A stretch of 39,928 nucleotides of DNA from a virus (lineage: Duplodnaviria; Heunggongvirae; Uroviricota; Caudoviricetes). Each line of letters opens with the position of its first letter. The stretch's first letter is position 1. The stretch is taken from the IMG/VR virus record IMGVR_UViG_2526164663_000052; one strand, written 5' to 3'. This document shows, in pieces, positions 1 through 39,082 of this stretch. The notes under the pieces are model-generated. The model searched no databases. It was not told the origin of the DNA and saw only the letters and a program-made list of their open reading frames with translations. The position numbers and the translations under genes were made by a program.

Positions 1-177
1 ATGAAAATTTCCCGCCTTGGAGAAGCGCCCGATTACCGCTTCTCGCTGGCTAATGAGCGTACTTTTCTGGCGTGGATCCGTACCGCACTAGGATTTCTGG
101 CGGCGGGGGTTGGGCTTGATCAACTTGCGCCAGATTTCGCCACGCCCGTCATTCGTGAACTGCTTGTAACCAGGTGA
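1..177 (+). pseudogene. yidH: 5' part of host inner-membrane gene yidH, interrupted by the prophage left end after codon 55 (reads into phage DNA, stop at 175-177)
   Basis: Opens with ATG at position 1 and encodes [55 protein letters not shown], which I recognise as YidH (DUF202). The remainder of the protein (ALLLCLFSGG...LYAG) is found in frame at 38897..39082. Confidence 0.75.
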
Positions 178-340
178 ATCATTTGATACCAACGAGGGTT
201 TTAGTGAAAGGAGGTGAAATCACCTGTAAGATACTGAAATAAAACAGGTGATGTCTGGATGAGCGCTTAAAGTCTATTTGATACCGATTGTGCAATAATT
301 AATCGTTTATTCTAAAATCGGCAAAACTTTTGATACTGCG
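165..340 (+). repeat. Left end with three same-orientation TTTGATACC-type motifs (182-190, 277-285, 328-336), candidate transposase binding sites L1-L3
   Basis: The motif is seen directly three times; its reverse complement GGTATCAAA occurs three times at the right end. Calling them binding sites rests on analogy with Mu attL, not on sequence identity to Mu sites. Confidence 0.55.
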
Positions 341-414
341 ATCTCAACTTTTTAAAGCGTTTAAAACTTCATTAAATCTATATGGCAACTAACATACGGG
401 CCAGCCTCGCCAAA

Positions 415-945
415 CTAACCCGCTTTAGATTCTACCGGATTTGATTGCCTACTTGTCTCGGTTTTTTCCAAAATCTCTCTGACGCAATCGTCTGGCATAT
501 CTACAATCATCAACGCAGCCAGGCGCTTCCTGCCTTCTAGTTGTAATAAATCCTGGTTTTCTTTATCCAGCAGTGTCAGAACCGTCTCTACACCTTTGCG
601 AGCAAGGAGATTGGTTAACTGTTCTCGTTCGTCTTTCGTAAGGAATGAAAGCATCTGTGTAAGTTGATCTCCCTTATCACCAGAACGACCAAAATTACCA
701 CAAATACCAACATCGTTTGGTGATTCACCCTTGCCCTCTTTAAGCCACTCAAGACTAACTCCTTCACTTTCAGAAATTCGTATAAGGATACTTTCTCTGG
801 GGGCTGGTTGTGTTTGTCCTCCCTTGAAATAGCTGTTTAATGTGTTGATATTGATTCCCCACGCTCTGGCAGCTGCACTTCTTGAAGGGTAGCGCTTTGT
901 AAGCATTCCAATACGTTCAATAACAGGTTCTTTTCCCTGCGACAT
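415..945 (-). CDS. Prophage repressor (Mu c-like position, HTH N-terminus)
   Basis: Sits at the left end, divergent from ner-A-B. ATG at 945 is preceded by AAGAGG; the track ORF extends to 1020 with an implausible N-terminus. The N-terminal part (AARAWGININTLNSYFKG) looks like an HTH. Confidence 0.6.
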   Translation of the reverse strand: MSQGKEPVIERIGMLTKRYPSRSAAARAWGININTLNSYFKGGQTQPAPRESILIRISESEGVSLEWLKEGKGESPNDVGICGNFGRSGDKGDQLTQMLSFLTKDEREQLTNLLARKGVETVLTLLDKENQDLLQLEGRKRLAALMIVDMPDDCVREILEKTETSRQSNPVESKAG

Positions 946-1020
946 AAAGATACCTCTTGGTGCTTTTCTAAGGAAAGGTTTCTTTCTATTTATCCAATTG
1001 AAAAATAAGGATAAAAGCAA

Positions 1021-1135
1021 AAAATAGCCAAAATACCAAAAATACCTTGATTTGGTATTTTTAGTGATGCATTATTTACCCGTGCAGATATCCGCACGAA
1101 TATCCGCGCGGGTAACTTTTTAGAATAGAGGAAGT
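1021..1135. promoter_or_regulatory. Divergent repressor/ner control region with repeated operator-like motifs
   Basis: Contains CAAAATACC-AAAAATACC direct repeats plus an inverted GGTATTTTT (1027-1062) and a tandem ATATCCGC x2 (1088-1107), in the 115-bp gap between divergent regulators. Confidence 0.5.
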
Positions 1136-1384
1136 ATGAGTAGAAGAGAAGTTTCAGATCACGATTGGCCGCCTGAAATCATCAAGGCGCGCTTACACAT
1201 GGCTGGCTTATCACTGCGCTCTTTATCTTTAAAGGCTGGTTACAGCAGGGATTCGCTGAAAAGCGTATTACGTACTCCTTGCCGACCGTATCAGCAAATA
1301 ATTGCTGATGCTCTTGGGGTATCGCCTGAAGAAATCTGGCCCAGTAGATACCAGGTTAAGAGCTATATGAGAAAGGCGTCATGA
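1136..1384 (+). CDS. ner: Ner-like DNA-binding regulator
   Basis: 82 aa; the C-terminus QQIIADALGVSPEEIWPSRYQ matches the Mu Ner / Nlp family as I recall it. Lies immediately upstream of the transposase. Confidence 0.8.
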   Translation: MSRREVSDHDWPPEIIKARLHMAGLSLRSLSLKAGYSRDSLKSVLRTPCRPYQQIIADALGVSPEEIWPSRYQVKSYMRKAS

Positions 1385-1385
1385 T

Positions 1386-3476
1386 ATGTATGTCATTGCA
1401 AAAGAACTGATTGGCGCGCCCGGAATGCCTGCTACAACAAAAGGTATTCGCCAGGCATTACAACGTTACGTACAAGGGAAAAGCTGTTGTTCCCGTCGTC
1501 GCTCAGGCTCTAAAGCAACTGAATACAGCATCGACTGTTTACCTGAAGTGACGCAGCAGGCATTACGTGAACGTTATGCCCTGCAACTGATGACGCAAAA
1601 AGCCGATGAATCACCGGCTCCGGTGGTGACAAAGGCCAGACGCTCATCTGACGTGGTTGATGCGGTGGAGGCATATCGCGGATCACCACAACTGATGGTC
1701 GAACGCCTCAATGCCCTGACTGAAAACCAGCGCCAGGTGGCTGATGCACGAATCGCGATCGTCAGCGAAGTGATGAAAGTCGCGCAACAACCCGGTTTCA
1801 GCTGCGCGAAGGCTATCCGGTTTATCGTTGACAACCTGGCACGTTCACAGCTGGACGAGCGCATTGTGGCAATGGTTGAGACGGCGAACGCCAAAAAGGG
1901 AAACAGCCGTGCGTTGAGTGAAATCACGCTGAAGCGATGGATTGCGGCCTTTAACAAGGCACAGAACGCCGCTGAACGCCTGCTTTTACTGGCACCGGGT
2001 AAACGCCAGGAAATAAAAGCCGAAGATATTAACTGGCTGCCCGAATTTCTGGCGCAGTATCGCCAGTCAAACGGCCGACCAATGACCGAGGCTTACGAGG
2101 ATTTTGTTGCTGAATGGCAGCACCGGCACGCTGATGAGCCTTATATGCTCGATATCATGCCCTCTTATGACACCATTCGCCGCGCAATGAAGAAACTGCC
2201 GGAAGTGGTGAAACAAAAAGGCCGGGTGACAGGCAGTGAATACCGTCAGCTTGAGGGATTCACGCGCCGCGACTGGTCCAGAATGCCGGTGAATTATGTC
2301 TGGATTGGTGACGGTCACGGCATGAAGATGAAATGCAGGCACCCGGTTCACGGGCGGCCATTTGCACCGGAAGTGACCTTTGTTATCGACGGTGGCACGC
2401 GCTTTGTGGTGGGCTGGAGCCTTGACCTGGCTGAAAATGTTTTCGCCGTAGCCGGTGCCATACAGCACGGTATTCGCCATCACGGCAAACCGTTTCTGTA
2501 TTACTCGGATAACGGTTCGGGGGAAACCGCCGACGTCCTGGATAAGGAGGTTGTGGGGATACTGCCGCGACTGGGGATTAATCACCCGACCGGGATTGCC
2601 GGTAATCCGCAGGGGCGAGGCATTATCGAACGGCTTAACCGCACATTACCGATGCGCATAGCCCGTAAATACCGCACCTATTTCGGGAAAGGTGCAGATC
2701 GCGAGACGTTACGCAAAACCAACCGCGATTTACGCTCGGCATTTACCGCCCTGCAACAGGGCAAACGGCTGAACGCCCGGCAACAGTCAGCGATGCGTGA
2801 TTTACCGTCCTGGGCTGAACTGATTGATGCCATTCGTGACGGTGTTGAGTGGTACAACAACCGGCCGCACGATGAATTACCGGTGAAGCCGAACGGTAAA
2901 CATTACAGCCCGGCGGAGTTCAGAAAAAAACGCCTGGCGGAAGAGGACACGGAAATTGAATGGCTGTCCGATGTTGAGCTGCGGGATATGTTCCGGCCGA
3001 TGGTGGAACGCCCTGTAAGACGCTGTGAAATACGCTGGCTGAATAATATTTACTACGCGCCCGAGCTGCGTGACGAGCATGGTCGTAAGGTGCTTATCAG
3101 CTATGACATTCATGATGCCGAACGAATTACCGTACGTCGCCCGGATGGCAGCGTGATTTGCGAGGCGGTATGGGACGGCAATAAACGCGAAGCCTTCCCG
3201 GTCAGCGCGGAATACTACAAACAGCAGCAACGCCTTAAAGGCATGCGTAAACGCGCAGAGGAAAAAATCCGTGATGCCGAGGATGAGGTGGTCAACGTGC
3301 TGGAGCACAAGCAGCAGGAGCCATGGCTGGAAAACATCTACCGCCCGGTGGGTAATACGGTGGCCGTTCAGCAACCTGCCGTTGATGATGAACCTGATGA
3401 AGAATACGAGCGTAATTTCCAGCGGGGATTGCAGTTGCTGGAAGCGAAATTAAAAGAAAATGACCCGCTGGCCTGA
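1386..3476 (+). CDS. DDE transposase, MuA-like
   Basis: 696 aa in the Mu A position, followed by the B ATPase. Assigned by size, position and family resemblance. Confidence 0.9.
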   Translation: MYVIAKELIGAPGMPATTKGIRQALQRYVQGKSCCSRRRSGSKATEYSIDCLPEVTQQALRERYALQLMTQKADESPAPVVTKARRSSDVVDAVEAYRGSPQLMVERLNALTENQRQVADARIAIVSEVMKVAQQPGFSCAKAIRFIVDNLARSQLDERIVAMVETANAKKGNSRALSEITLKRWIAAFNKAQNAAERLLLLAPGKRQEIKAEDINWLPEFLAQYRQSNGRPMTEAYEDFVAEWQHRHADEPYMLDIMPSYDTIRRAMKKLPEVVKQKGRVTGSEYRQLEGFTRRDWSRMPVNYVWIGDGHGMKMKCRHPVHGRPFAPEVTFVIDGGTRFVVGWSLDLAENVFAVAGAIQHGIRHHGKPFLYYSDNGSGETADVLDKEVVGILPRLGINHPTGIAGNPQGRGIIERLNRTLPMRIARKYRTYFGKGADRETLRKTNRDLRSAFTALQQGKRLNARQQSAMRDLPSWAELIDAIRDGVEWYNNRPHDELPVKPNGKHYSPAEFRKKRLAEEDTEIEWLSDVELRDMFRPMVERPVRRCEIRWLNNIYYAPELRDEHGRKVLISYDIHDAERITVRRPDGSVICEAVWDGNKREAFPVSAEYYKQQQRLKGMRKRAEEKIRDAEDEVVNVLEHKQQEPWLENIYRPVGNTVAVQQPAVDDEPDEEYERNFQRGLQLLEAKLKENDPLA

Positions 3477-16524: not shown

Positions 16525-17839
16525 TTTAGGTTATGCCGCCACCCTTCCCTCAAAAGAGGCGGTGGCATACTTCCGCGCCAAAGGGGCGCATATCAGCTGG
16601 AACTGGTTCGAAACAAACGCAGATGTTCATGCCCGTTCATTCACGGCGGCAAAAGTGGCACGCCTGGACGTACTGACCACACTACAGGCGGAAGTGCAGC
16701 GTGCTGTTGATGAGGGGATTTCACAGAAAGCATTTATCCGCACACTGACACCCCGCCTGCAAAAGCTGGGATGGTGGGGAAAGCAGATTGTGGTGGACAG
16801 CGCCGGTAACGCAGAAGAAGTGCAACTGGGCAGTCCCCGCCGTCTGGCGCTGATTTACAACGTGAACACCCGCGTGGCTTACAATGCCGGGCGTTACACG
16901 CAGATGATGAACAACACGGACACGCATCCGTTCTGGCAGTATGTGGCGGTGATGGACAGCCGCACCCGCCCGGCGCATTCCGCCCTTAACGGGCTGGTAT
17001 TCCGCTATGACGATCCGTTCTGGAATACACACTACCCACCCAATGGCTGGAACTGCCGCTGCCGTGTCCGGCCATTGTCTCAGACCCGTCTGGATGCAAT
17101 GGGGTTATCCGTTTCATCCGGTCAGGATCATCTTTCCACCCGCAATGTTGAGGCTGGCGTGGATAAGCAGACCGGAGAAGTCAGAGAAATGCCGGTGACC
17201 ACATATTCAGATGGCACCAGAACCATGACACCGGATGTGGGCTGGTCATATAACCCCGGTTCGGCGGCGTTCGGCACAGACCAGGCGCTGCTCCGCAAGT
17301 TGATCGAGGTGAAAAGCCCGGCGTTACGGGAAATGGTGGTTCAGGAGATGAACAACAGCCCGGAGCGGCAGCTGGCGTTCCGCATCTGGGCAAAAAACAT
17401 CATGAAAACCCGGCGAGGCGGTAACGATATCCGCACGCTGGGCTTTATGACCGAAAGTATTGCGCAGGCGGTGGAAAGCCGGACGGGAACGCCACCGGCC
17501 CGCCTGCTGGCGATGAGCGGTAAAAATGTGCTCCATGCGGACAGCATGAAACATCAGAATGACGGCATTGCCCTGACGCCGGAGGATTTCGGGCGATTAC
17601 CGGCAATGCTGGCAAAGCCAAAAGCGGTACTGTGGGATAAACGCCACAACAATCTGATGTATATCGTGGAAAGTAAGGATGGCAGTGTGCAGATTGCCGT
17701 TAATGCGCCGTACAGCCTGAAGCGTCAGCCGGATAAACTGGATGTGATTGTGAATGCTTACCGGGTTATCAATATGGATAAGCTGAAATCGGATATCCGG
17801 GGCGGAATGCTTGAGGTACTGGAAGGAGATATTGATTAA
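16508..17839 (+). CDS. Head morphogenesis protein, Mu F-like (gp30)
   Basis: 443 aa; the N-terminal half resembles the phage Mu F family (NGWNCRCR motif). Confidence 0.8.
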   Translation: MAQGIDLGYAATLPSKEAVAYFRAKGAHISWNWFETNADVHARSFTAAKVARLDVLTTLQAEVQRAVDEGISQKAFIRTLTPRLQKLGWWGKQIVVDSAGNAEEVQLGSPRRLALIYNVNTRVAYNAGRYTQMMNNTDTHPFWQYVAVMDSRTRPAHSALNGLVFRYDDPFWNTHYPPNGWNCRCRVRPLSQTRLDAMGLSVSSGQDHLSTRNVEAGVDKQTGEVREMPVTTYSDGTRTMTPDVGWSYNPGSAAFGTDQALLRKLIEVKSPALREMVVQEMNNSPERQLAFRIWAKNIMKTRRGGNDIRTLGFMTESIAQAVESRTGTPPARLLAMSGKNVLHADSMKHQNDGIALTPEDFGRLPAMLAKPKAVLWDKRHNNLMYIVESKDGSVQIAVNAPYSLKRQPDKLDVIVNAYRVINMDKLKSDIRGGMLEVLEGDID

Positions 17840-17960
17840 CGGTCAGTGGCGGGGGTCGAACCCGCATACATGATCCACCCGGAGGCAGGCACCGACTTTA
17901 CCAGTTAAGCGTACACTGACCGCCTGCTTATTTTATATTCATATTTTATACGGAGGCAAT

Positions 17961-18610: not shown

Positions 18611-19735
18611 ATGAAGACGAAAAACACGCCCAAACTTGCTTATGCCATTCTGAATGCCATCAGCCTGTCCGCAGACGGGGACGGTGACTGGTGTCAGATC
18701 ATGCCAGCCGGTCGGGTAAAGGCCCGTGACGGTCGCCCGGAAAAACCGGCCGAGGGCTGGCTGATCAACCATGCAGCCGTTGAGCGCATGGTCTCCCGGG
18801 TTGTGGCGCTCAATCAGCCGGTGAAAATTGACTACAACCACCAGACCCTGATTAAGGGGCATCAGGCACCGGCTGCCGGTTTTGTGATGGCCTCACCGGA
18901 GAATTTTCGCTTCAGTGAAGAGCGTGGCTTCGAGGTGCGCCCAAAGTGGAACCCTCCGGCCCTTGAACATCTGCGTAATAACGAATTCCCCTGGTTTTCA
19001 CCGGTGATTGGCTATGACGAGAACACCGGCGAACCTGTCGAACTTCGGATGCTGGCTATTACCGGTGACCCCGGTCTGACCGGCATGAATCCTGTCGCCG
19101 CGCTGTCGGCGGATGACCTTTATAACGCCTTAAACCCTCCTTTAAAGGATACCTCCATGAATGAGCAATTACGCCAGTTGCTGACGGCGCTCGGTCTGAC
19201 CGTGGCTGACGGTGACGAATTTACGCCGGAGCTGGGCACGGCGGCGCTGTCTGCCCTCACCGGGATCAAAACCCGTGCGGATGCACACGACAACCTGAAA
19301 ACACAGGTCGCCAGTCTGTCGGCAGAGCTGGAAACCGCAAAAGGCACACCGGCTGGCGGCAGTATTGATCTGACGAAATACGTGCCCGTTGAAACGTATA
19401 ACGCCCTGCGTACCGAATACGTTGCGCTGTCGGCGCAGCACGGCAGCACCACGCTGGAGCAGGTGCTGGACAAGGCTGAATCCGAAGGGCGCATCTTCAA
19501 AAGCGAACGCGGCTATCTGGAACAACTGGGCGGGCAGATTGGCGTTGCGGCACTTTCTGCACAGCTTGACGCCCGCCAGCCGGTTGCGGCCCTGACCTCT
19601 CTTCAGACCGACACCGTGACCGTGCCGGATAAAAAGACTGCCACCGCTGCGCTGTCGGCTGAAGATATCGCGGCCGCCAAACTGCTGGGTAAAACCGAAG
19701 CCGAGTTCCTGAAAATGAAAGAGGAAATGCAATAA
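18611..19735 (+). CDS. Head maturation protease / scaffold, Mu I-like (gp32)
   Basis: 374 aa immediately upstream of the major capsid gene; C-terminal Ala-rich scaffold-like region. Confidence 0.75.
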   Translation: MKTKNTPKLAYAILNAISLSADGDGDWCQIMPAGRVKARDGRPEKPAEGWLINHAAVERMVSRVVALNQPVKIDYNHQTLIKGHQAPAAGFVMASPENFRFSEERGFEVRPKWNPPALEHLRNNEFPWFSPVIGYDENTGEPVELRMLAITGDPGLTGMNPVAALSADDLYNALNPPLKDTSMNEQLRQLLTALGLTVADGDEFTPELGTAALSALTGIKTRADAHDNLKTQVASLSAELETAKGTPAGGSIDLTKYVPVETYNALRTEYVALSAQHGSTTLEQVLDKAESEGRIFKSERGYLEQLGGQIGVAALSAQLDARQPVAALTSLQTDTVTVPDKKTATAALSAEDIAAAKLLGKTEAEFLKMKEEMQ

Positions 19736-20682
19736 TGCCTACCCCGATTACACCGGCGATGATCACCGCCCTGATGACGGGCTACCGTTCTGATTTTCAG
19801 GCCGGGATGTCCATGGCCCCGTCGCAGTATAAAAAAATTGCGATGACCGTGCCCTCCACATCGAAATCCAACACCTACGGCTGGCTGGGGCAGTTCCCGC
19901 AGTTCCGTGAGTGGATCGGCTCCCGCGTCATCGAGAAGATGAAAGCCTATGGCTATGCCATCGTGAACAAAACTTTTGAAGGCACTGTCGCCATTAGCCG
20001 CGATGACTTCGAAGACGACAACCTCGGTATTTATTCCCCGTTGTTCCAGGAGATGGGGCGCGCTGCGGCGGTACAACCGGATGAGCTGGTCTTTGCTGCC
20101 CTGCGTGACGGGATCAGTGCGGCCTGCTATGACGGTCAGAACTTCTTTGATACCGAACATCCGGTTTACCCTAAAGTGGATGGCTCCGGGGATGCGCAGA
20201 TGGTCAGCAATATGTTTGTGGCAAAAACCGGCTCTGTCGGCGCACAGGCTGATTACAGCGGTCCGGCCTGGTATCTGCTTGACTGCTCCCGCGCGGTAAA
20301 ACCGCTGATTTATCAGGATCGCCGTAAGGCTGAACTGGTTGCCCAGACCAAAGTCGATGAAGGTCGCGCATTCACCGATAATGAATTTGTGTTTGGTGCA
20401 TCCGCCCGTCGCAATGTGGGCTACGGCTTCTGGCAGATGGCCTACATGATGCAGTCACCGCTGACGCTGGATGCACTGTGGCACGGCTGGTCAGCCATGC
20501 GCGAATTTACCGCTGACGGTGGCCGCAAACTCGGCATCAAACCCACCCATATTGTTGTCCCCACCTCGCTGGAAAAACAGGCGGTGCAGCTGCTGGAGCG
20601 TGAACTGTTCGCAGACGGAAACGCAACCGTCTCTAACGAGATGAAGGGCAAGCTGGAGCTGGTTGTCGCGGATTATCTGTAA
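19735..20682 (+). CDS. Major capsid protein, Mu T-like (gp34)
   Basis: 315 aa in conserved position. Confidence 0.8.
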   Translation: MPTPITPAMITALMTGYRSDFQAGMSMAPSQYKKIAMTVPSTSKSNTYGWLGQFPQFREWIGSRVIEKMKAYGYAIVNKTFEGTVAISRDDFEDDNLGIYSPLFQEMGRAAAVQPDELVFAALRDGISAACYDGQNFFDTEHPVYPKVDGSGDAQMVSNMFVAKTGSVGAQADYSGPAWYLLDCSRAVKPLIYQDRRKAELVAQTKVDEGRAFTDNEFVFGASARRNVGYGFWQMAYMMQSPLTLDALWHGWSAMREFTADGGRKLGIKPTHIVVPTSLEKQAVQLLERELFADGNATVSNEMKGKLELVVADYL

Positions 20683-20725
20683 ACGGTGAGCCGGGCTTAC
20701 GGCCCGGCCCCTGCGGAGGGCAAAT

Positions 20726-21115
20726 ATGAATGAACATCACACTGTGGCAGCAACAGATGATTCAGGTCTTCAGGTCAGTGGTGACAATTCTGTCACGGTG
20801 CTGGCAGAAGTGCGTTGCAGTCGTTCGGCGTTTCGTCGTGCGGGGTTCCTGTTCACGCGTGGACGTCAGCAGGTTGAGGTCACCCCGGAGCAGCTTGCCC
20901 GACTGGAGGCGGAGCCATGCCTCACTGTGCGAATACTACAGACGTCTGCTGATGATGCGGGGAGCGTGGCGGGTGTGGTTCATGCAGTGGCCTGTACAGA
21001 TTTAGCCGAAGCCGAAGCCGAAGCCGAAGCCGAAGCCGAAGCCGAAGCCGGACAGGATGCTCCCCGGAAAAAGACCGGTAACAAAGCGAAACAGGCGAAA
21101 AAGGCCCGCGCATGA
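20726..21115 (+). CDS. Hypothetical head-region protein with internal (Ala-Glu)n repeat and Lys-rich C-terminus
   Basis: 129 aa between capsid and gp36-like genes; contains AEAEAEAEAEAEAE encoded by the GCCGAA repeat. Confidence 0.5.
   Translation: MNEHHTVAATDDSGLQVSGDNSVTVLAEVRCSRSAFRRAGFLFTRGRQQVEVTPEQLARLEAEPCLTVRILQTSADDAGSVAGVVHAVACTDLAEAEAEAEAEAEAEAGQDAPRKKTGNKAKQAKKARA
21005..21050 (+). repeat. Perfect hexanucleotide tandem repeat (GCCGAA) x7.7 inside a coding region
   Basis: Seen directly: gccgaa repeated without interruption, in frame, encoding (Ala-Glu)n. Confidence 0.95.
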
Positions 21116-21531
21116 ATTACGCCACTGAAACCGATATGCGGGCGCGTTACCGCGAGGATTTGCTCAGGCCGTTACTGGCTGTGCCCCGTTCGGATGAGCC
21201 GGACACGCGCAAGCTGAACCGGGCGCTGACAGATGCGTCAGCCCTTATCGACAGCTATCTGTCCGCCCGTTACACGTTGCCGCTGGAGGTTATTCCGGCC
21301 GTTCTTGTTCAGCACTGTTGCGCGATTGCCTTTTATTACCTGTGCGATCAGCGAGCCTCCGATCAGGTGCGTGACCGTTACCGTGAAGCGCTGGCCTGGC
21401 TGAAAGATGTCATGAACGGCAATGTGCCGGTCGGTGTGGATACGAACGGTGCGGCCCCTGAATCCGGGGATTTACCACTGGTTCAGTCTGATGCAGCGGT
21501 ATTCGGGCGCAACCAGAAGGGCTTCATATGA
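21112..21531 (+). CDS. Mu gp36-like head/neck protein
   Basis: 139 aa; assigned by position and size. Confidence 0.5.
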   Translation: MNYATETDMRARYREDLLRPLLAVPRSDEPDTRKLNRALTDASALIDSYLSARYTLPLEVIPAVLVQHCCAIAFYYLCDQRASDQVRDRYREALAWLKDVMNGNVPVGVDTNGAAPESGDLPLVQSDAAVFGRNQKGFI

Positions 21532-32010: not shown

Positions 32011-32921
32011 TGTTTCATGTTGATAATAATTCCGGCGTGGCGAATATGCCTGCGCTGGCACCGGCGCAGAGTAATACCACCACCTGGTTTACCGAAGGTG
32101 ACGGACAAAAAGGTATCAGCTGGATTGGTCAGGACTGGCTGAATATTCTCCAGGCCGAACTGCTGAATATTCTGGCTGAAGCCAGTATTCAGCCGGATAA
32201 GGCGCAGTTAAACCAGCTTACGCTGTCCATTAAAGCCATTATCGCTGCGAATGCCTTTTCCCGGAAAAACAACCTGAAAGAAATTGCTGATGCCGGTGCG
32301 GAAGCCCAGCGTCTTGCCCGTGGTTATCTTGGTCTTGGGGCGCTTGCCACAAAAAACAGTCTTGGTCCCGGTGACGTTAATGCTCTGGCGAAGGATCAGA
32401 ACCTTGCCGACCTGGAGAATGCGGGAACCGCCCGTAATAATCTGGATGTTTACAGCAAAAGCGAAGGTGATAACCGTTACCTGCGCAGGGAGCAGAACGG
32501 CGCAGACATTCCGGATAAAGGCGCTTTTATCGATAACGTCGGTTTACGGGAAACGGTAAATAAGGCTGCTGATGCCCTGCCATCGGGTGGAACCGCCGTG
32601 GCAGCAAACAGACTCGCCACCCCAAGAAATATTAATGGCGTTCCTTTTGACGGAACGCAGGATATCAACATCACGTCAGGAATGACGCAGTCAACCGCAG
32701 ATGGCCGGTATGTACAGAATGTTCAGCTTGGAGCACAGAGCTATCATTCACCCGGAGGCAATGAAATATCATGGAATTACAGCGCACCTTCCGGTTGTAT
32801 GCTTTCCGGTATTAACGTGCAGGAAACCGGCTCCCGGTCTGCGGACAATATCGGTGGGGTCTATTATCGCCCGGTTCAGATTTATATTAATAATGCCTGG
32901 AGAACGGTAAGTTCAGTGTAA
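32010..32921 (+). CDS. Tail fibre protein (constant N-terminal part plus current variable C-terminal cassette)
   Basis: 303 aa. The C-terminal ~125 aa is homologous to a second cassette encoded on the opposite strand at 33599..33970. Confidence 0.8.
   Translation: MFHVDNNSGVANMPALAPAQSNTTTWFTEGDGQKGISWIGQDWLNILQAELLNILAEASIQPDKAQLNQLTLSIKAIIAANAFSRKNNLKEIADAGAEAQRLARGYLGLGALATKNSLGPGDVNALAKDQNLADLENAGTARNNLDVYSKSEGDNRYLRREQNGADIPDKGAFIDNVGLRETVNKAADALPSGGTAVAANRLATPRNINGVPFDGTQDINITSGMTQSTADGRYVQNVQLGAQSYHSPGGNEISWNYSAPSGCMLSGINVQETGSRSADNIGGVYYRPVQIYINNAWRTVSSV
32527..32552 (+). other. Left recombination site (gix-like) of the invertible segment, inside the tail fibre gene
   Basis: TTATCGATAACGTCGGTTTACGGGAA resembles the Mu gix site as I recall it, and recurs as an inverted copy at 33947..33976. 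Confidence 0.6.
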
Positions 32922-32955: not shown

Positions 32956-33477
32956 TTATTCCGGTTTTTCCGGCCAGGGAATCGCCTGGTAATGCCCCTC
33001 ACTGGCAATATCATTAAAGTGCATTTCTTTAAGCTGTCGGATATACGCCATCCAGCGCGTCAGCTGTAATTTATTTTCATCGCTAATCATGTCCAGTTTT
33101 AATTCTGTTTTCCAGTCATCCACGGTTTCGTTGGCTTCCTGGAGCAGCGATGAGCGACGCTTTTCAGCAACCGTCTTCCAGTTTACCGGCACCTTTGATA
33201 TCAGGCCATCAGAAAACTGCCAGTTACCGTCAATATTCACACCTTCCGGCAGTTCGTCCACTTCAACAACAGTAAAACCTGCCGGATATAAAGCAGAGAC
33301 ATCTTCAGCAACAGAGCAGATAATACCCGTTACAGGCGAAATACAGAGTTTGTATTTCTTTGTGAAAAGCGGGATAGATTCATAAAAATCCCTTCCGTCC
33401 TCACTCTGGAAATACTGAACATCCTCACCATAGGGTTTGTCTTTCGGGTAATATCGTTTGACATTAATCAGTTGCAT
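32956..33477 (-). CDS. Tail fibre assembly chaperone (Tfa, Mu U / P2 G-like)
   Basis: Start taken at the internal ATG (MQLINVKRYYPKDKP...). The C-terminus (...HYQAIPWPEKPE) resembles phage tail-fibre assembly proteins. The track ORF has an AT-rich, implausible N-terminal extension. Confidence 0.75.
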   Translation of the reverse strand: MQLINVKRYYPKDKPYGEDVQYFQSEDGRDFYESIPLFTKKYKLCISPVTGIICSVAEDVSALYPAGFTVVEVDELPEGVNIDGNWQFSDGLISKVPVNWKTVAEKRRSSLLQEANETVDDWKTELKLDMISDENKLQLTRWMAYIRQLKEMHFNDIASEGHYQAIPWPEKPE

Positions 33478-33598
33478 AAACATCACCATGTAAATCAATG
33501 ATAAAAACAGGAATAATACTATCGCCATATACAGGCAATGCTTGTCTGAAATAACGCATATTTCAGATGCTGGCTGCTGTGTGCTATGCCCCCGTTAA

Positions 33599-33970
33599 TT
33601 AAATACTTGCAGCGGATACCCAATGCCCATTAATACAATATTGTATCTGTCTGTAATAAACACGGTCATCACCACCACGCATTTCCCAGTCTCCGTCAGT
33701 CTTAAAACCGGTAATCACATTTCCTGATGACAGGGAGTAATTATATTCCAGTCCGCCGCTTAATGCCTGCGCTCCCAGTCTTACCCCTGTAACATAACGC
33801 TGATTGGCCGTTGATTCCGGCATTCCTGACGTAATGTTTATATCCTGCGTGCCGTCAAAGGCGACACCATTGATTCTGCGGGCATTTGCCAGCCTGCTTG
33901 CTGCAACAGCCGTACCGTTTGATGGCAGGGCATTCGCGGCCCTGTTTACCGTATCCCGTAAACCGAGGTT
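33599..33970 (-). other. Alternative tail fibre C-terminal cassette, with no start codon of its own (expressed only after inversion)
   Basis: The minus-strand frame is open from 33970 to the stop at 33599. It translates to GLRDTVNRAANALPSNGTAVAASRLA...NGVAFDGTQDINITSGM..., parallel to GLRETVNKAADALPSGGTAVAANRLA...NGVPFDGTQDINITSGM... in the + strand fibre. Confidence 0.65.
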
Positions 33971-33976
33971 TCAGGG
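33947..33976 (-). other. Right recombination site (gix-like) of the invertible segment
   Basis: Inverted copy of the TCGGTTTACGGGA-ACGG core (one mismatch), followed by a further ~30 bp of imperfect inverted homology. Confidence 0.6.
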
Positions 33977-34032
33977 ATGCCGTATATCTGCTTTAAAAGG
34001 CTTTTCCACCTCTTTTTAAGGAAGGTAAATAC

Positions 34033-34593
34033 ATGCTGATTGGCTATATACGCGTATCAACAAATGACCAGAACACCGGTTTACAAAGAAATGCGCTGGA
34101 ATGTGCAGGATGTGAGCAGATTTTTGAAGACAAAATGAGTGGTAAAACGACACAGCGGCCGGGACTGAAGCGGGCACTGAAGAAACTAAAACCCGGTGAC
34201 ACGCTGATGGTCTGGAAACTGGACAGGCTGGGGCGCAGTATGCGCCACCTTGTTGCGCTGACAGATGAATTACAGCAACAGGGGATAAATTTTCGTAGTC
34301 TTACTGACAACATTGATACGTCAACCCCCATGGGGCGCTTCTTTTTTCACATAATGGGTGCGCTGGCAGAAATGGAGCGTGAATTAATTGTCGAACGGAC
34401 ACGGGCTGGTCTTGCAGCAGCCCGTGAAAGGGGACGAACCGGCGGCAGACCCCGCCGTCTCACGCAGGAACAATACGAGCAGGTCGGGCGTTTACTGGCC
34501 GGGGGTGTCAGTCGAAGACAGGTGGCACTTATTTTTGATATCGGTCTTTCAACCCTTTATCGTTATTATCCTGCGAGCGTTTCGGAAAAATAA
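34033..34593 (+). CDS. gin: Serine DNA invertase (Gin/Hin/Cin family)
   Basis: 186 aa; N-terminus MLIGYIRVSTNDQNTGLQ with catalytic-serine context, C-terminal HTH; lies next to the invertible segment. Confidence 0.9.
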   Translation: MLIGYIRVSTNDQNTGLQRNALECAGCEQIFEDKMSGKTTQRPGLKRALKKLKPGDTLMVWKLDRLGRSMRHLVALTDELQQQGINFRSLTDNIDTSTPMGRFFFHIMGALAEMERELIVERTRAGLAAARERGRTGGRPRRLTQEQYEQVGRLLAGGVSRRQVALIFDIGLSTLYRYYPASVSEK

Positions 34594-34692
34594 GACGCTC
34601 CCTTTGTTGGGCCTTTACTGAATTAACGCAAAATGGCGTTTATCGGTCTGTGGATATGATAATTCAGTTTATTCAGGAACAGGCTGATTATT

Positions 34693-36741
34693 ATGACGTC
34701 CAAATGGGTTCAACTATCATCAATGCCCGGAAACTTTACTGTTAAAGTTTCCGGTGGTACAGCGGCATTTCTTGAGGCTCCCTTTCCTCCGGCCGAAACA
34801 AAAGGAGGAATGACATTTGCTGACTGTCTCATCAGTTTTAATACACAGGATTGCCTGTGGGTAAGGCCAGTATCCGGTGATCCGAACGTGGAAATTACCG
34901 GAGCGGGTATTGGTGCTGTCATTCCGTTAAGTGCTGATGTTGCCGGTACTACTGAACCGTCAGACTGGGATAATGCAGAAACACATACCCGTCCGGCAGG
35001 AAATGAAACGGCTTCCAGCTCCCCTTCCTGGTATTACGTGATTGTTATAGCCGGCCAGTCCAATGCTTCATCTTATGGTGAAGGGTTGCCCCTTCCGGAT
35101 TCTTATGATCGTCCTGATCCACGTATTATGCAGCTGGCACGCAGGAATACACAAACCCCCGGAGGTATTCCCTGCAAATACAATGAAATCATTCCAGCAG
35201 ATCACTGCCTTCATGATGTTCAGAATATGAGTCTGCTGAACCATCCAAAAGCAGACCTGAAAAAAGGGCAGTATGGTTGTGTGGGGCAGGGACTTCATAT
35301 TGCGAAAAAAGTATTACCGGTGATTCCTGCTGATGCCGGGATTTTACTGGTTCCCTGTGCCCGTGGCGGCTCTGCTTTTACAACCGGCGCAGTTGGCTCA
35401 TTCGATCCGGCAAGTGGTGCAGCCGAGGCGTCACTACGCTGGGGAGTGGATACCCCACTGTATCAGGATCTTGTCAGTCGAACTAAAGCGGCACTTGAGG
35501 CGAATCCAAAGAATGTGCTGTTATCTGTCGTATGGATTCAGGGGGAAGGAGACCTTAAAGCGACCCCGGCCCAGCATGGTGCCCAGTTTACTGCGATGGT
35601 GAAAAAATTCCGTGCGGATCTTGGTGCTTTCTCCGGTCAGTGTATTGGTGGTTCATCAGACAGTGTGCCGTGGTTATGTGGTGACACAACCTATGACTGG
35701 AAAGAGAAGAACCCGGCGGCATATGAAACCATTTATAGCGGATATAAAAACCGGGCTTCCGAGAACATTCACTTTGTTCCACTGATGCACGATGAGTTCG
35801 GTAATAAAACCGCGACCAACCTGCCGGAGCACGACCCGGATATCGCTTCTGCCGGGTATTATGGTGCGGAATCACGGGGAGATGGCAACTGGACAACAGC
35901 ATCCAGGGCAACCCATTTTAGCTCCTGGGCGCGCCGTTTTCTGGTCTCAGATCGTTTTGCATCAGCAATTCTTAAATATGCAGGTCTGACCTCTGCATTT
36001 ATTGCCGGTGTGGCCCCTGATGGTGAAGCCCTGCCTCAGCCCGCGCCGGGTGGGAAACCGGAAGCGCCGACAGGTAGTCAGCCAGGAGGCAGTGAGTCCC
36101 CCCATCCGACATCCCCGTCACTCCGTACGCTGCTTTCACTTAAAGCATCAGCAGGAGAAGCCCCGGCTCAGGGCTGGAAAATTACAGATGGTACAATCCA
36201 GCTGACGGACGAAGGTAAAGCGTTGACCGTATCCAAACAAAGCGGAAAAACCTGGACGCTTACCCATGGAACTGATGCAGCCGGTGAACTTCTGAAGCAT
36301 GGTGGTCAGTTGACCTGTAAATTCCGTCTGTCAGGTGAAGTAAAAGAAGGCCAGTTTGCTCTGGGTATTTACCTCCACACCGATACGGTCCCGGAAGGTG
36401 TAACCATGAGTGGTACAGGCACACCGTTCCTGATGGCGTATTATCTCCAGACAACAGGCGGCCAGTTAAATCTGATGCACCATAAAACAGGGGGGAATAC
36501 GAAACTGGGATCATTTGGAGCCTACAATAACCAGTGGCATACACTTGTCCTGAAGTTTACGGCGGGAAGTGCCCAGGTAACGCCTGTGCTGGATGGCACT
36601 CCGGGCCAGGCATTCCAGATGGTGAAAGATGCACTTTCCCCTGCCAAAGATACGCTGACACTGACAGATGTCACCAAAGGGGCAACTTATGGCGTGTCTT
36701 TTGAGAGCGTTGTCCTTGAGGTTAATACCCCTGCGGCATAA
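34693..36741 (+). CDS. Cargo gene: putative SGNH/SASA-family carbohydrate O-acetylesterase with a C-terminal beta-rich domain
   Basis: 682 aa. VIVIAGQSNASSYGEG (GQSN block), CARGGS and VWIQGEGD motifs resemble the sialate O-acetylesterase (SASA, NanS-type) family. Mu has no gene of this kind between gin and com. Confidence 0.5.
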   Translation: MTSKWVQLSSMPGNFTVKVSGGTAAFLEAPFPPAETKGGMTFADCLISFNTQDCLWVRPVSGDPNVEITGAGIGAVIPLSADVAGTTEPSDWDNAETHTRPAGNETASSSPSWYYVIVIAGQSNASSYGEGLPLPDSYDRPDPRIMQLARRNTQTPGGIPCKYNEIIPADHCLHDVQNMSLLNHPKADLKKGQYGCVGQGLHIAKKVLPVIPADAGILLVPCARGGSAFTTGAVGSFDPASGAAEASLRWGVDTPLYQDLVSRTKAALEANPKNVLLSVVWIQGEGDLKATPAQHGAQFTAMVKKFRADLGAFSGQCIGGSSDSVPWLCGDTTYDWKEKNPAAYETIYSGYKNRASENIHFVPLMHDEFGNKTATNLPEHDPDIASAGYYGAESRGDGNWTTASRATHFSSWARRFLVSDRFASAILKYAGLTSAFIAGVAPDGEALPQPAPGGKPEAPTGSQPGGSESPHPTSPSLRTLLSLKASAGEAPAQGWKITDGTIQLTDEGKALTVSKQSGKTWTLTHGTDAAGELLKHGGQLTCKFRLSGEVKEGQFALGIYLHTDTVPEGVTMSGTGTPFLMAYYLQTTGGQLNLMHHKTGGNTKLGSFGAYNNQWHTLVLKFTAGSAQVTPVLDGTPGQAFQMVKDALSPAKDTLTLTDVTKGATYGVSFESVVLEVNTPAA

Positions 36742-36798
36742 TCGTGACGGCCGGGAATTTATCCGGCTGTAACATCAGTTAATAAGAGTGAGGCTTAT

Positions 36799-36978
36799 AT
36801 GACATATATAAACGTCTGCCTGCTGTATTTCTGCACGGTGGTTTGTTGTCTGTTGCTTGTCAGCGGTGGTTATAAAATTATTCGCAATTATTTTCGAAAT
36901 AAAATTGATGCAGCTGCCGAGGAAAAGATAAAAAGCGGTGCTGTAATGCCGCAGCCGAAAGACTCCGGTCAGATTTAA
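36799..36978 (+). CDS. Small hydrophobic protein (59 aa, below the ORF-track cutoff)
   Basis: ATG 36799 preceded by GAGG; translates to MTYINVCLLYFCTVVCCLLLVSGGYKIIRNYF... (one TM plus a charged tail). Confidence 0.4.
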   Translation: MTYINVCLLYFCTVVCCLLLVSGGYKIIRNYFRNKIDAAAEEKIKSGAVMPQPKDSGQI

Positions 36979-37013
36979 TTTTTTGTGAACCAGAAAAGGA
37001 AAGGAGAATATTC

Positions 37014-37259
37014 ATGCCAGAGATTAAAGGCACGGTTACTGAAGAGCTTGTCAAACAGGCACTTTATTCTGAAGAAGTGAACCGCGTGCTGAAGGCGCAG
37101 GTTCGCAAGGATTTTGAGGCACAAATCGACGCATATGTTGATGAAGTGCTGGCCCGAATGGTTGGTCGTTCTCCGGCTGAAAACAGCACGGAAAATGAGC
37201 CTCAACCCGTAGAGCAACCAGAGCCGGTTCAACCCGGAACTGACGGTACTATGATGTAA
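37014..37259 (+). CDS. Hypothetical acidic protein
   Basis: 81 aa; strong SD AAGGAAAGGAGA upstream; followed by a hairpin. Confidence 0.5.
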   Translation: MPEIKGTVTEELVKQALYSEEVNRVLKAQVRKDFEAQIDAYVDEVLARMVGRSPAENSTENEPQPVEQPEPVQPGTDGTMM

Positions 37260-37268
37260 CAATACCGA

Positions 37269-37288
37269 CCGGCAGGTTTCCCTGCCGG
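37269..37288. terminator. Hairpin between convergent small genes
   Basis: CCGGCAGG / TTTC / CCTGCCGG perfect stem-loop, between the + strand stop (37259) and the - strand stop (37298). Confidence 0.5.
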
Positions 37289-37297
37289 GTGAATTTG

Positions 37298-37468
37298 TTA
37301 ATGCACGTTTTGTGTATTTTCCCTCCGGGGAGAACAGGCCGGACATATCAGCATCCTGAAACAGGAAGCATTTTTTGGTTTGTATGTCTTGCCATTTTGA
37401 GATCGAGAACGGCGATAGATGAGCTGTAAGGGAGTCTTACAGGCAGGGCAAACAGGCTCTTTATCCAT
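37298..37468 (-). CDS. Small zinc-ribbon protein (CPAC...CPAC), 56 aa
   Basis: ATG at 37468 preceded by AAGGAG; translates to MDKEPVCPACKTPLQLIYRRSRSQNGKTYKPKNASCFRMLICPACSPRRENTQNVH. Convergent with the 37014..37259 gene. Confidence 0.45.
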   Translation of the reverse strand: MDKEPVCPACKTPLQLIYRRSRSQNGKTYKPKNASCFRMLICPACSPRRENTQNVH

Positions 37469-37689
37469 GATAAAGATCTCCTTTTTATGCATCTCTGCTT
37501 TACAGGAGACCGGGGAATATCATAGGATACGCCACGAGCTCGAAGTAAAGCATTGATGCAAGTTTTTACAGATTGACCCAGCATAGTTCCAGCTATGCTG
37601 GGTTTCCCTTTTATGTAGTATCCTGTTGATTTGAAACATACTACATATACGCGCGATCCTACCTTCACTGTATAAAAAGTCAATAAAAT

Positions 37690-37827
37690 GATCATTTTAT
37701 GATCGTTTTCACCACCTAACTCTTCGTTTCTTTAAGTAAATAATCACCGCCCTGAATCATTGTTGATGACTTTTAAATCTATTTGTTGTATCAATTAAAC
37801 AAATCGAATCGATCGTTTTTGTCGATC
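37690..37827. promoter_or_regulatory. Candidate mom-operon regulatory region with four GATC (Dam) sites in two pairs
   Basis: GATC at 37690, 37701, 37811 and 37824; the second pair sits in a near-palindrome AATCGATCGTTTTTGTCGATCGATT, ~50 bp upstream of com. The Mu mom promoter is known to be controlled by Dam methylation and OxyR. Confidence 0.5.
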
Positions 37828-37874
37828 GATTGCATGAGAAAGGCATCAACAACAAAGCAGGAGGTTATGCGGCC

Positions 37875-38075
37875 ATGTATCGAAACATACGGTGCCGACA
37901 CTGCAATAAGCTACTGGCACGGGCCAGTTTCAGTTATCTGGAAGTAAAATGTCCGCGCTGTAAAACCCTCAATCAAATCACATCTCCGAGCGCCACAGAG
38001 CACCCCACATACACAAGGAAATCCTGTCGTGGGGAACAGAAAGCAAGTCACATCCCGTATCATCAGCACGCCTGA
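37875..38075 (+). CDS. com: Com, zinc-finger translational activator of mom
   Basis: [14 protein letters not shown]...KCPRCK matches Mu Com (M..IRC.NCNKLL...RCPRCK) as I recall it; overlaps the start of mom. Confidence 0.8.
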
Positions 38076-38766
38076 ACTTATTCGCTATAACGACAATATC
38101 GTTGGTTATGGCTCCCGTGAGTTGCGGGTTGAGACAATAAGTTGCTGGCTGGCCAGACTGGTTATCGTCAATAAACATTACAGCCACCGTTTCGTAAATA
38201 ATTCCTACCTTCATCTGGGTATATTTTCAGAACGGGAACTTGTTGGCGTAATGCAATGGGGTTACGCCCTTAACCCAAACAGTGGTGCACGCGTCGTAAC
38301 GGGTACGCAGAACCGAGAATATATGGAGCTTAACCGGCTATGGATGCATGACTGTATGCCGAGAAACTCCGAATCAAGGGCAATCAGTTACGCGCTCAAG
38401 CTAATCAGGCAGCTTTATCCGCAGGTACAGTGGGTTCAGTCGTTTGCAGATGAGCGTTGTGGCTGTCTTGGTGTCGTGTATCAGGCAAGCAATTTTGATT
38501 ATGTAGGCAGCCATGAATCAACATTCTATGAACTTGATGGCGAGTGGTATCACGAGATTTGCAGGAGTGCCATTAAACGAGGCGGACAACGAGGTGAACA
38601 TCTGAGGGCTAATATCGACAGAGCCAGTGTGCATAAGTTCCGACAGTTTCGTTACATCCGGTTTCTGAACAAGAGGGCCAGAAAACGCCTCAACACAAAG
38701 CTATTCAAAGTCCAGCCTTACCCAAAACCACAAACAGTTAAAACTGGTTTGAAAGAGAGTGAATGA
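38029..38766 (+). CDS. mom: Mom DNA-modification protein (anti-restriction adenine modification)
   Basis: 245 aa from a GTG start overlapping com. It occupies the Mu mom position at the right end, immediately after com. Confidence 0.85.
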
Positions 38767-38812
38767 GCGCTTAAAAACTCATTCTAAAACTCAAAAGAAA
38801 AGCGCCGATTTA

Positions 38813-38880
38813 GTATCAAATAAGTTGCGTATCGGCGTTTTTCAGCGGTATCAAATGAAATGCAAATCGGTATCAAAAAA
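38813..38880 (-). repeat. Right end with three GGTATCAAA motifs (38813-38820, 38848-38856, 38869-38877), inverted relative to the left end
   Basis: Seen directly; mirrors the left-end motifs. The terminal 12 bp CGCCGCGCTATA resembles the Mu right end as I recall it. Confidence 0.55.
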
Positions 38881-38896
38881 ATCGCCGCGCTATATG

Positions 38897-39082
38897 CTGG
38901 CGTTGTTGTTGTGTCTGTTTTCCGGCGGGTTAGCGATGTATGGCTACCTGCGCTGGTTACGCAATGAAAAAGCGATGCGTCTGAAAGAGGACCTGCCCTA
39001 CACCAACAGCTTATTAATCATTAGCTTAATATTGATGGTCGTGGCGGTGATCGTTATGGGACTGGTGTTGTATGCCGGATAG
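38897..39082 (+). pseudogene. yidH: 3' part of disrupted yidH
   Basis: In frame LALLLCLFSGGLAMYGYLRWLRNEKAMRLKEDLPYTNSLLIISLILMVVAVIVMGLVLYAG, continuing the protein that starts at 1..165. Confidence 0.75.

Follow-up and report, generated by a model that had tools for sequence, protein, structure and literature searches.

A perfect hexanucleotide array inside a phage head-region gene raises the question of whether its copy number varies among related prophages, how such variation would come about and what it would mean for the protein that carries it. The window analyzed here is the whole 39,928-nt stretch of the IMG/VR record IMGVR_UViG_2526164663_000052 (Caudoviricetes). By far its strongest tandem array lies at 21004-21050, where Tandem Repeats Finder reported a period of 6, 7.8 copies, 100% matches, no indels and a score of 94. 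GCCGAA was the sole perfect hexamer with three or more tandem repeats in the 39.9-kb window, and the number of runs of 41 consecutive period-6 matches expected by chance anywhere in 40 kb is about 1e-20. The original prediction, made from the letters alone, described a perfect 46-bp in-frame repeat at 21005-21050 encoding (Ala-Glu)7. Direct reading and Tandem Repeats Finder agreed that the array is perfect; it lies in frame with the plus-strand 129-aa ORF and codes for (Ala-Glu)7, with Ala-Gly coming next; the 46 bp, however, resolved into precisely seven units (21005-21046) plus the GCCG of a degenerate unit. A minus-strand ORF (20922-21113) that would read across the array as (Leu-Arg)n found no support and is located entirely within the conserved plus-strand gene. 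The features of the locus are compiled in Table 1.

Table 1. Features at and around the GCCGAA array, in window coordinates.
Feature	Position	Strand	Basis or remark
I protease/scaffold	18611-19735		upstream of gpT
Mu-type major head subunit gpT, upstream neighbor	19735-20682	+	PF10124, E=6.6e-119; phrog_371, major head protein
Shine-Dalgarno-like GGAGGG	20715-20720	+	5 nt 5' of the ATG of the gp35-like gene; read directly
gp35-like/'HI1506-related' gene, 129 aa	20726-21115	+	ORF list; FluMu_N; phrog_3622; RefSeq
FluMu_N-type folded domain, aa 25-73 (beta-hairpin, helix, strand)	20798-20944	+	AF2 pLDDT 82-91; 2OUT match
Non-repetitive linker part, aa 74-93, SADDAGSVAGVVHAVACTDL, net charge -3	20945-21004	+	AF2 pLDDT <50 from aa 77
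Microsatellite proper, (GCCGAA)7 = (Ala-Glu)7, aa 94-107, net charge -7	21005-21046	+	direct reading; Tandem Repeats Finder
Degenerate last unit GCCGGA (Ala-Gly)	21047-21052	+	expands to (Ala-Gly)n in some alleles
Basic C-terminal tail, QDAPRKKTGNKAKQAKKARA	21053-21112	+	alignments; AF2 pLDDT <50
gp36-type head-tail adaptor, downstream neighbor	21112-21531	+	PF07030, E=2.6e-35; phrog_195, head-tail adaptor

The predicted location of the 129-aa gene between capsid and gp36-like genes was confirmed by the profile matches of its two neighbors. The gene order in the window (I protease, gpT, the 129-aa gene, gp36, gp37, DUF2635 and sheath) is identical to that of Mu around this site, and the Mu counterpart of the 129-aa gene, Mup35, bears the note 'HI1506 homolog'. 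The stop codon of the 129-aa gene overlaps the ATG of the gp36 gene (ATGA), which suggests that the two are translationally coupled. Judged by its sequence, the window belongs to the Sakai Sp18 type of Mu-like E. coli prophages, and it aligns nearly end to end with the RefSeq prophage of strain 90-3040 (L001), with 99.96% identity over the 20.3 kb upstream of the array. That RefSeq prophage begins with genes for Mu transposase and AAA+ ATPase, continues with those for Gam, Mor, lysis, terminase, portal, head and tail, and ends with an invertible tail-fiber segment and a Com/methyltransferase module.

The comparison with L001 also brought up features outside the head region. From 33468 to 38900 the window is mosaic relative to L001, its nearest relative among complete genomes, with 89-97% identity and gaps as opposed to 99.96% on the left; this right end comprises the tail-fiber/invertible segment, a recombinase, a DUF6645 gene and the Com/methyltransferase module. 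An inverted 158-bp match (32535-32692 in the window versus 33231-33074 in L001) would fit an invertible segment of the Gin type. Additionally, RefSeq lists a 'tRNA-OTHER' on the minus strand of L001 at 17116-17195 (window ~17844-17923), flanked by head-morphogenesis (Mu F-like) and virion-morphogenesis (Mu G-like) genes, and ARAGORN identified zero tRNAs over the whole window.

Comparison among related prophages showed that the copy number is far from invariant, extending from 1 to 20 units in complete E. coli genomes. The gp35-like gene was found in 228 of the 5426 complete E. coli genomes, and for a census 60 of the 229 E. coli records with a match were picked at even steps, of which 44 had alignments spanning the array. 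All 44 length differences were exact multiples of 6. The sample contained 13 alleles (1, 4, 5, 6, 7, 8, 9, 10, 11, 13, 14, 15 and 20 units) with a Simpson diversity of 0.90 (n=44) among genomes that are not phylogenetically independent, and the commonest allele was the single unit (9/44). Direct counting at 12 loci gave 1, 1, ~2 (interrupted), 4, 10, 11, 13, 13, 13, 13, 14 and 20 units, with every length difference falling within the array. The genes carrying the 1-, 4-, 7- (window) and 13-unit alleles were otherwise 100% identical, the 7 units of the window standing against 13 in strain 90-3040. As had been anticipated, changes occurred in whole 6-nt steps without a frameshift in genes that were otherwise identical or nearly so, and they resulted in a protein of variable linker length, with a total of 117-152 aa across alleles. 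The locus therefore displays the features of a VNTR, namely a perfect, short, head-to-tail unit and whole-unit variation with conserved flanks.

Four near-clonal cattle isolates with the prophage at the same chromosomal site gave a view of this variation over a short period. Strain 114 carries 14 units and strains 131, 140 and 141 carry 13, with 0 mismatches across 3.2 kb of flank, a difference of one step that arose within a very short time. Twenty IMG/VR contigs with homologous flanks, sampled independently, contained complete arrays of 1-11 units, and two further contigs broke off inside arrays with a minimum of 12 and 14 units, respectively. In the same collection, a divergent sub-lineage with a flank identity of ~92% held both a 2-unit and an 11-unit allele, indicating that expansion is not limited to one lineage. 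An 18-mer scan of genome contigs yielded 21 matches, where ~17 were expected by chance, 0 of them with a homologous flank, and provided no evidence of the gp35-like gene beyond E. coli and Shigella. Alleles could also be shuffled when co-resident or incoming Mu-like prophages recombine, and some of the differences may not represent new slippage.

It is very improbable that the differences in copy number are artefacts of assembly or sequencing. Such an origin is brought to mind by draft assemblies that break at the array, by 'partial' proteins that end within (AE)n and by the two IMG/VR contigs that end inside it. Against it stand the strict multiples of 6 in all 44 comparisons, the perfection of the arrays counted directly in complete genomes, and the length of the arrays (46-126 bp), which lies well inside single reads. 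Related genomes also agree with one another: strains 131/140/141 share 13 units, H40-H43 share 8 and H47-H52 share 1.

The array, a perfect SSR within a coding sequence on a pathogen's mobile element, could likewise suggest a phase-variable on/off contingency switch, comparable to the tetranucleotide repeats of Haemophilus and Neisseria. The contingency loci of those genera share with this array a perfect in-gene SSR and, probably, slipped-strand mispairing, but their units are not multiples of 3 and turn expression on or off, whereas this array alters just the length and charge of the protein. The unit length rules out a switch of this type, to which we assign a negligible probability: slippage by 6 nt keeps the frame, all counted alleles are in frame, and all complete alleles examined are open, save for single sequences with other frameshifts (P0051, P0053 and P0072).

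Several 6-bp in-frame VNTR loci underpin E. coli O157 MLVA typing, and thus the kind of repeat described here is already well known. Like the O157/STEC MLVA loci, the present locus is a perfect hexanucleotide array in an ORF that varies by whole-unit steps among close STEC strains and shows single-step differences within clonal groups. It differs from them in its location in a mobile Mu-like prophage, and since that prophage occurs in just 228 of 5426 complete genomes, null alleles would result if the array were used as a general typing locus. Within Sp18-type Mu-like prophages of Shiga-toxin-producing E. coli it is a highly discriminating marker (D ~0.9 in the census sample), which resolved a one-unit difference among the near-clonal cattle isolates. 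Literature searches with the hexamer in all rotations and on both strands, and with MLVA or VNTR combined with Mu-like and Sp18, found no publication on this locus, the subscription MLVA papers lying outside the search, and the locus may possibly have been described before in the classic MLVA papers. The search for HI1506 returned no match, and a paper on O157 chronological strains mentions the Mu-like prophage and not the repeat.

The array also has practical consequences for sequence databases. Draft assemblies often break at 21005-21052 (proteins P0061, P0062, P0067 and P0071; loci L024 and L036), and the family includes many database entries that are 'partial' and stop within (AE)n, such as P0061, with 103 aa and 82 member sequences. 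Short-read assemblies that break at the array thus leave shortened 'partial' proteins behind. In addition, where the array of the subject is longer than that of the query, BLAST probably splits one gene into overlapping pieces; the '2 places per record' counts that we encountered probably reflect such pieces rather than two prophages, and copy counts are probably inflated in this way.

The composition of the array gives information about its origin. All of its units use the identical two codons, which argues that the tract arose through duplication of DNA and not through selection for an Ala-Glu peptide. Units that had acquired point mutations were themselves duplicated (AEVEVE, AESESE, VEVE, SESE and AGAGAGAG), and the AEAEAEAGAGAGAG allele results from expansion of GCCGGA, the terminal unit. 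In the single-unit allele the sequence is GCCGAA-GCCGGA, a two-unit stretch in which 11 of 12 bases match, and an ancestral two-unit proto-repeat of this form, coding for Ala-Glu-Ala-Gly, may have been the seed of the array. Mu gp35 has LAEAGG (Leu-Ala-Glu-Ala-Gly-Gly) at the equivalent position of its linker, coded by an unexpanded GCTGAG-GCTGGG. Most likely, therefore, the Sp18-type lineage of E. coli developed the microsatellite out of a conserved linker motif, and it is the only lineage in which the motif is expanded, as opposed to Mu gp35 and HI1506.

From such a seed, whole GCCGAA units would be gained and lost by slipped-strand mispairing at replication, and each unit gained would add two residues and one negative charge without ever shifting the frame. 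Hairpins would have no part in this slippage. Instability driven by hairpins was ruled out, given that the single-stranded array folds worse than shuffled sequences on both strands (z +1.75 and +1.97), and this poor folding, together with the established biology of SSRs, points to plain slipped-strand mispairing as the likely mechanism. That the single-unit allele is the commonest would fit a near-absorbing state, slippage being difficult to resume from a single unit. Altogether, the locus appears to be a putatively hypermutable VNTR of in-frame hexanucleotide units, carried by the gp35-type gene of a Mu-like prophage that resembles Sp18. One E. coli sequence of the family, P0072 (119 aa, one contig), reads ...VAVWWFMQPAGTKPKPKPDEGYSRKKTG..., with the array in the +1 frame (CCGAAG, Pro-Lys) and this stretch flanked by two compensating frameshifts; it could reflect an error in sequencing or a genuine (Lys-Pro)n variant.

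The consequences of this variation depend on the protein in which it occurs. The Pfam family FluMu_N (PF17891) matched aa 36-72 with E=2.1e-9 and 37.4 bits versus a cut-off of 25.8, and phrog_3622, whose annotated function is unknown, matched with E=4e-82. RefSeq names the identical gene 'HI1506-related protein'. The NMR structure of HI1506 from H. influenzae (2OUT) was matched by phmmer (E=9e-5) and was the top Foldseek match (probability 1.0) and the only structure that Foldseek retrieved from the PDB; a fold search of BFVD provided no functional match. Mu gp35 is 51% identical over a 41-aa core. A single-sequence HMMER search against 1.84 billion representatives gave just 20 matches, which indicates that the family is small and divergent. 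Mu gp35, Edwardsiella P0084 and several of the HMMER representatives are among the relatives that carry a helical C-domain of ~45 aa after a variable linker, and alignments show that the E. coli Sp18-type proteins are without this domain and have a 20-aa lysine-rich tail instead. By domain, fold and gene order the window protein is a member of the FluMu_N/gp35 family, and a C-terminally shortened variant without the second domain. With Mu gp35 and HI1506 it shares the position of its gene between the major capsid gene T and gp36, the N-terminal domain and the succession of a folded N-domain and a flexible linker, and with Mu gp35 also the Ala-Glu-Ala-Gly at the equivalent linker position; it differs from both in ending in the short tail and not in the helical domain.

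The AF2 model contains one confident domain (aa 25-73), which carries the conserved motif RRAGF...VT.EQL..L..P.L.V. All of aa 77-129, including (AE)7 and the tail, had a pLDDT of <50, a value that is no proof of disorder in a model built on a shallow 20-sequence alignment, and (Ala-Glu)n could instead be helical. The prediction that the repeat sits in a linker was thus borne out in the sense of a predicted-disordered, linker-like stretch between the folded domain and the basic tail. Constraint on this stretch seems to be low, since anything from 1 to 20 units is tolerated, units with Val, Ser, Thr, Lys or Gly substitutions are tolerated as well, and the linkers of relatives are unrelated in sequence and length. 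The acidic, predicted-disordered spacer between the FluMu_N domain and the lysine-rich tail would absorb changes in length, and it is these properties that would make length variation tolerable. With the frame kept and the spacer under low constraint, the variation is most likely near-neutral, neutrality being an assumption of this reading. Overall, we consider it quite probable that the array is a slipped-strand VNTR in a low-constraint linker, with variation that is probably near-neutral.

The charges on either side of the array could be taken to argue for function. Residues 108-129 (Ala-Gly plus the tail) have a net charge of +7, which the -7 of the (AE)7 tract in the window nearly cancels, and the acidic tract could be functionally coupled to the tail that it adjoins. 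Under an adaptive rheostat, copy number would be under diversifying or tuning selection, with the acidic (Ala-Glu)n setting the reach of the basic tail or the masking of its charge. For a single gene, 13 alleles with a D of 0.90 are an unusually wide range; the folded C-domain that most relatives (Mu gp35 and P0084 among them) have at this position makes a function of the C-terminus probable; and JBD30 gp39 is a precedent in the family for a capsid-surface protein with a disordered charged extension. We nevertheless regard such a rheostat as improbable. The length of the array is not evidently matched to the type of tail, with both the long (+7) and the short type ranging widely; the single unit is the commonest allele (9/44); and the persistence of Val, Ser, Thr, Lys and Gly units indicates low constraint. 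Were the rheostat real, the tract would be a rapidly evolvable control of charge and length, with the protein anchored to the capsid by its folded domain and the reach or electrostatic masking of the lysine-rich tail set by the acidic spacer; the alleles would give virions that differ in surface charge, stability, adhesion or nucleic-acid binding, and the locus would be a case of length-based, non-frameshifting contingency variation in a phage structural protein.

Two types of tail are in circulation, ...KKTGNKAKQAKKARA and the shorter, less basic ...KKTGNKAEQARA (window 21053-21112 versus L002 and L004). They differ by a 9-bp deletion and by point changes near a second small repeat, which Tandem Repeats Finder placed at 21086-21105 (GCGAAAAAG x2.2). 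The gp36 allele downstream changes together with the tail type, which suggests a recombination boundary at the 3' end of the 129-aa gene.

The role of the protein determines whether the polymorphism would be displayed on the virion. The most plausible role of the 129-aa protein is that of a small accessory protein of the head, and a Soc-like decoration of the capsid, dispensable and with an extension that is invisible in maps, is a serious possibility that we rate at somewhat less than an even chance. This role is suggested by homology and synteny with gp39 of phage JBD30. A profile search of the PDB retrieved, with a marginal E of 0.87, chain B of 8RKC, which is JBD30 gp39 and was named by its depositors 'Mu-like prophage FluMu N-terminal domain-containing protein'. 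In the mature JBD30 capsid, gp39 is a minor capsid protein with a Soc-like beta-tadpole fold, and its trimers occupy the three-fold and quasi-three-fold axes; its residues 1-52 are disordered and absent from the model, and it was present on only ~5/12 particles, the authors deeming the protein dispensable (PMC11445458).

JBD30 is a Mu-like transposable phage whose gp39 gene lies directly 3' of the major capsid gene, syntenic with the window gene, and the two proteins have the core RAGFxF...EQLxxLExDPxLxV in common. Both also combine a small folded domain with a long, charged, low-complexity extension, which is disordered in the JBD30 virion and only predicted to be so in the window protein. 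On the other hand, the extension of gp39 is N-terminal (aa 1-52) and non-repetitive, JBD30 is a siphophage of Pseudomonas, unlike the E. coli Sp18-type prophage, and the similarity in sequence is marginal: gp39 scored 22.5 bits against FluMu_N, under the cut-off of 25.8, and hhalign aligned the two over 31 columns with E=1.7e-4 and a probability of just 49%. The fold searches (Foldseek against the PDB, and BFVD) recovered neither 8RKC nor Soc, and hence gave no fold-level support for a link to decoration proteins.

Alternatively, the protein may not decorate the capsid and may act as a connector- or neck-associated head-completion protein or as a non-virion nucleic-acid-binding protein, in which case the polymorphism would leave the virion surface unaffected; this is a credible if tentative reading, to which we likewise give less than half of our confidence. 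The lysine-rich tail would suit nucleic-acid binding, a role that was reportedly proposed for HI1506 in the paper on its NMR structure. The gene seems to be translationally coupled to that of the adaptor gp36, and the annotation of Mu gp35 in GenBank AF083977.1 reads 'head-to-tail connector complex protein' (the record cites PMID 29767456). A 2025 cryo-EM study of the Mu virion, the nearest virion with structural data, observed no cement proteins on the capsid and no gp35 density, and called gp35 'probably structural' and possibly connector-related (PMC11915804). These points have to be weighed against JBD30 gp39, the one member of the family that has been observed in a virion, where it is a capsid decoration trimer (PMC11445458), encoded at the same position right after the capsid gene. 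Because gp39 was kept on only 5/12 of the JBD30 particles, loss during purification of Mu could explain the absence of gp35. Under either role, the repeat would be located in an unstructured extension that would escape maps.

Whichever role applies, the locus is an ordinary kind of microsatellite, mainly useful as a strain marker and as a linker-length series. It provides a clean natural case of coding microsatellite variation absorbed by a predicted-disordered linker, and the alleles of 1-20 units already present in sequenced strains form a natural series with which effects of linker length and charge can be tested in the poorly understood gp35/FluMu_N family. The view of phage biology is unchanged unless the variation proves to be functional.

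FluMu_N-like domains also occur as C-terminal tandem pairs in larger proteins of ~180-316 aa and 6-9 times in very long metagenome proteins, the larger proteins including P0088 (1815 aa), P0089 (789 aa), P0099 (1026 aa), P0093, P0097 and P0102. The recurrence of the domain in these sequences suggests that the small FluMu_N-like domain may be a reusable binding module beyond gp35.
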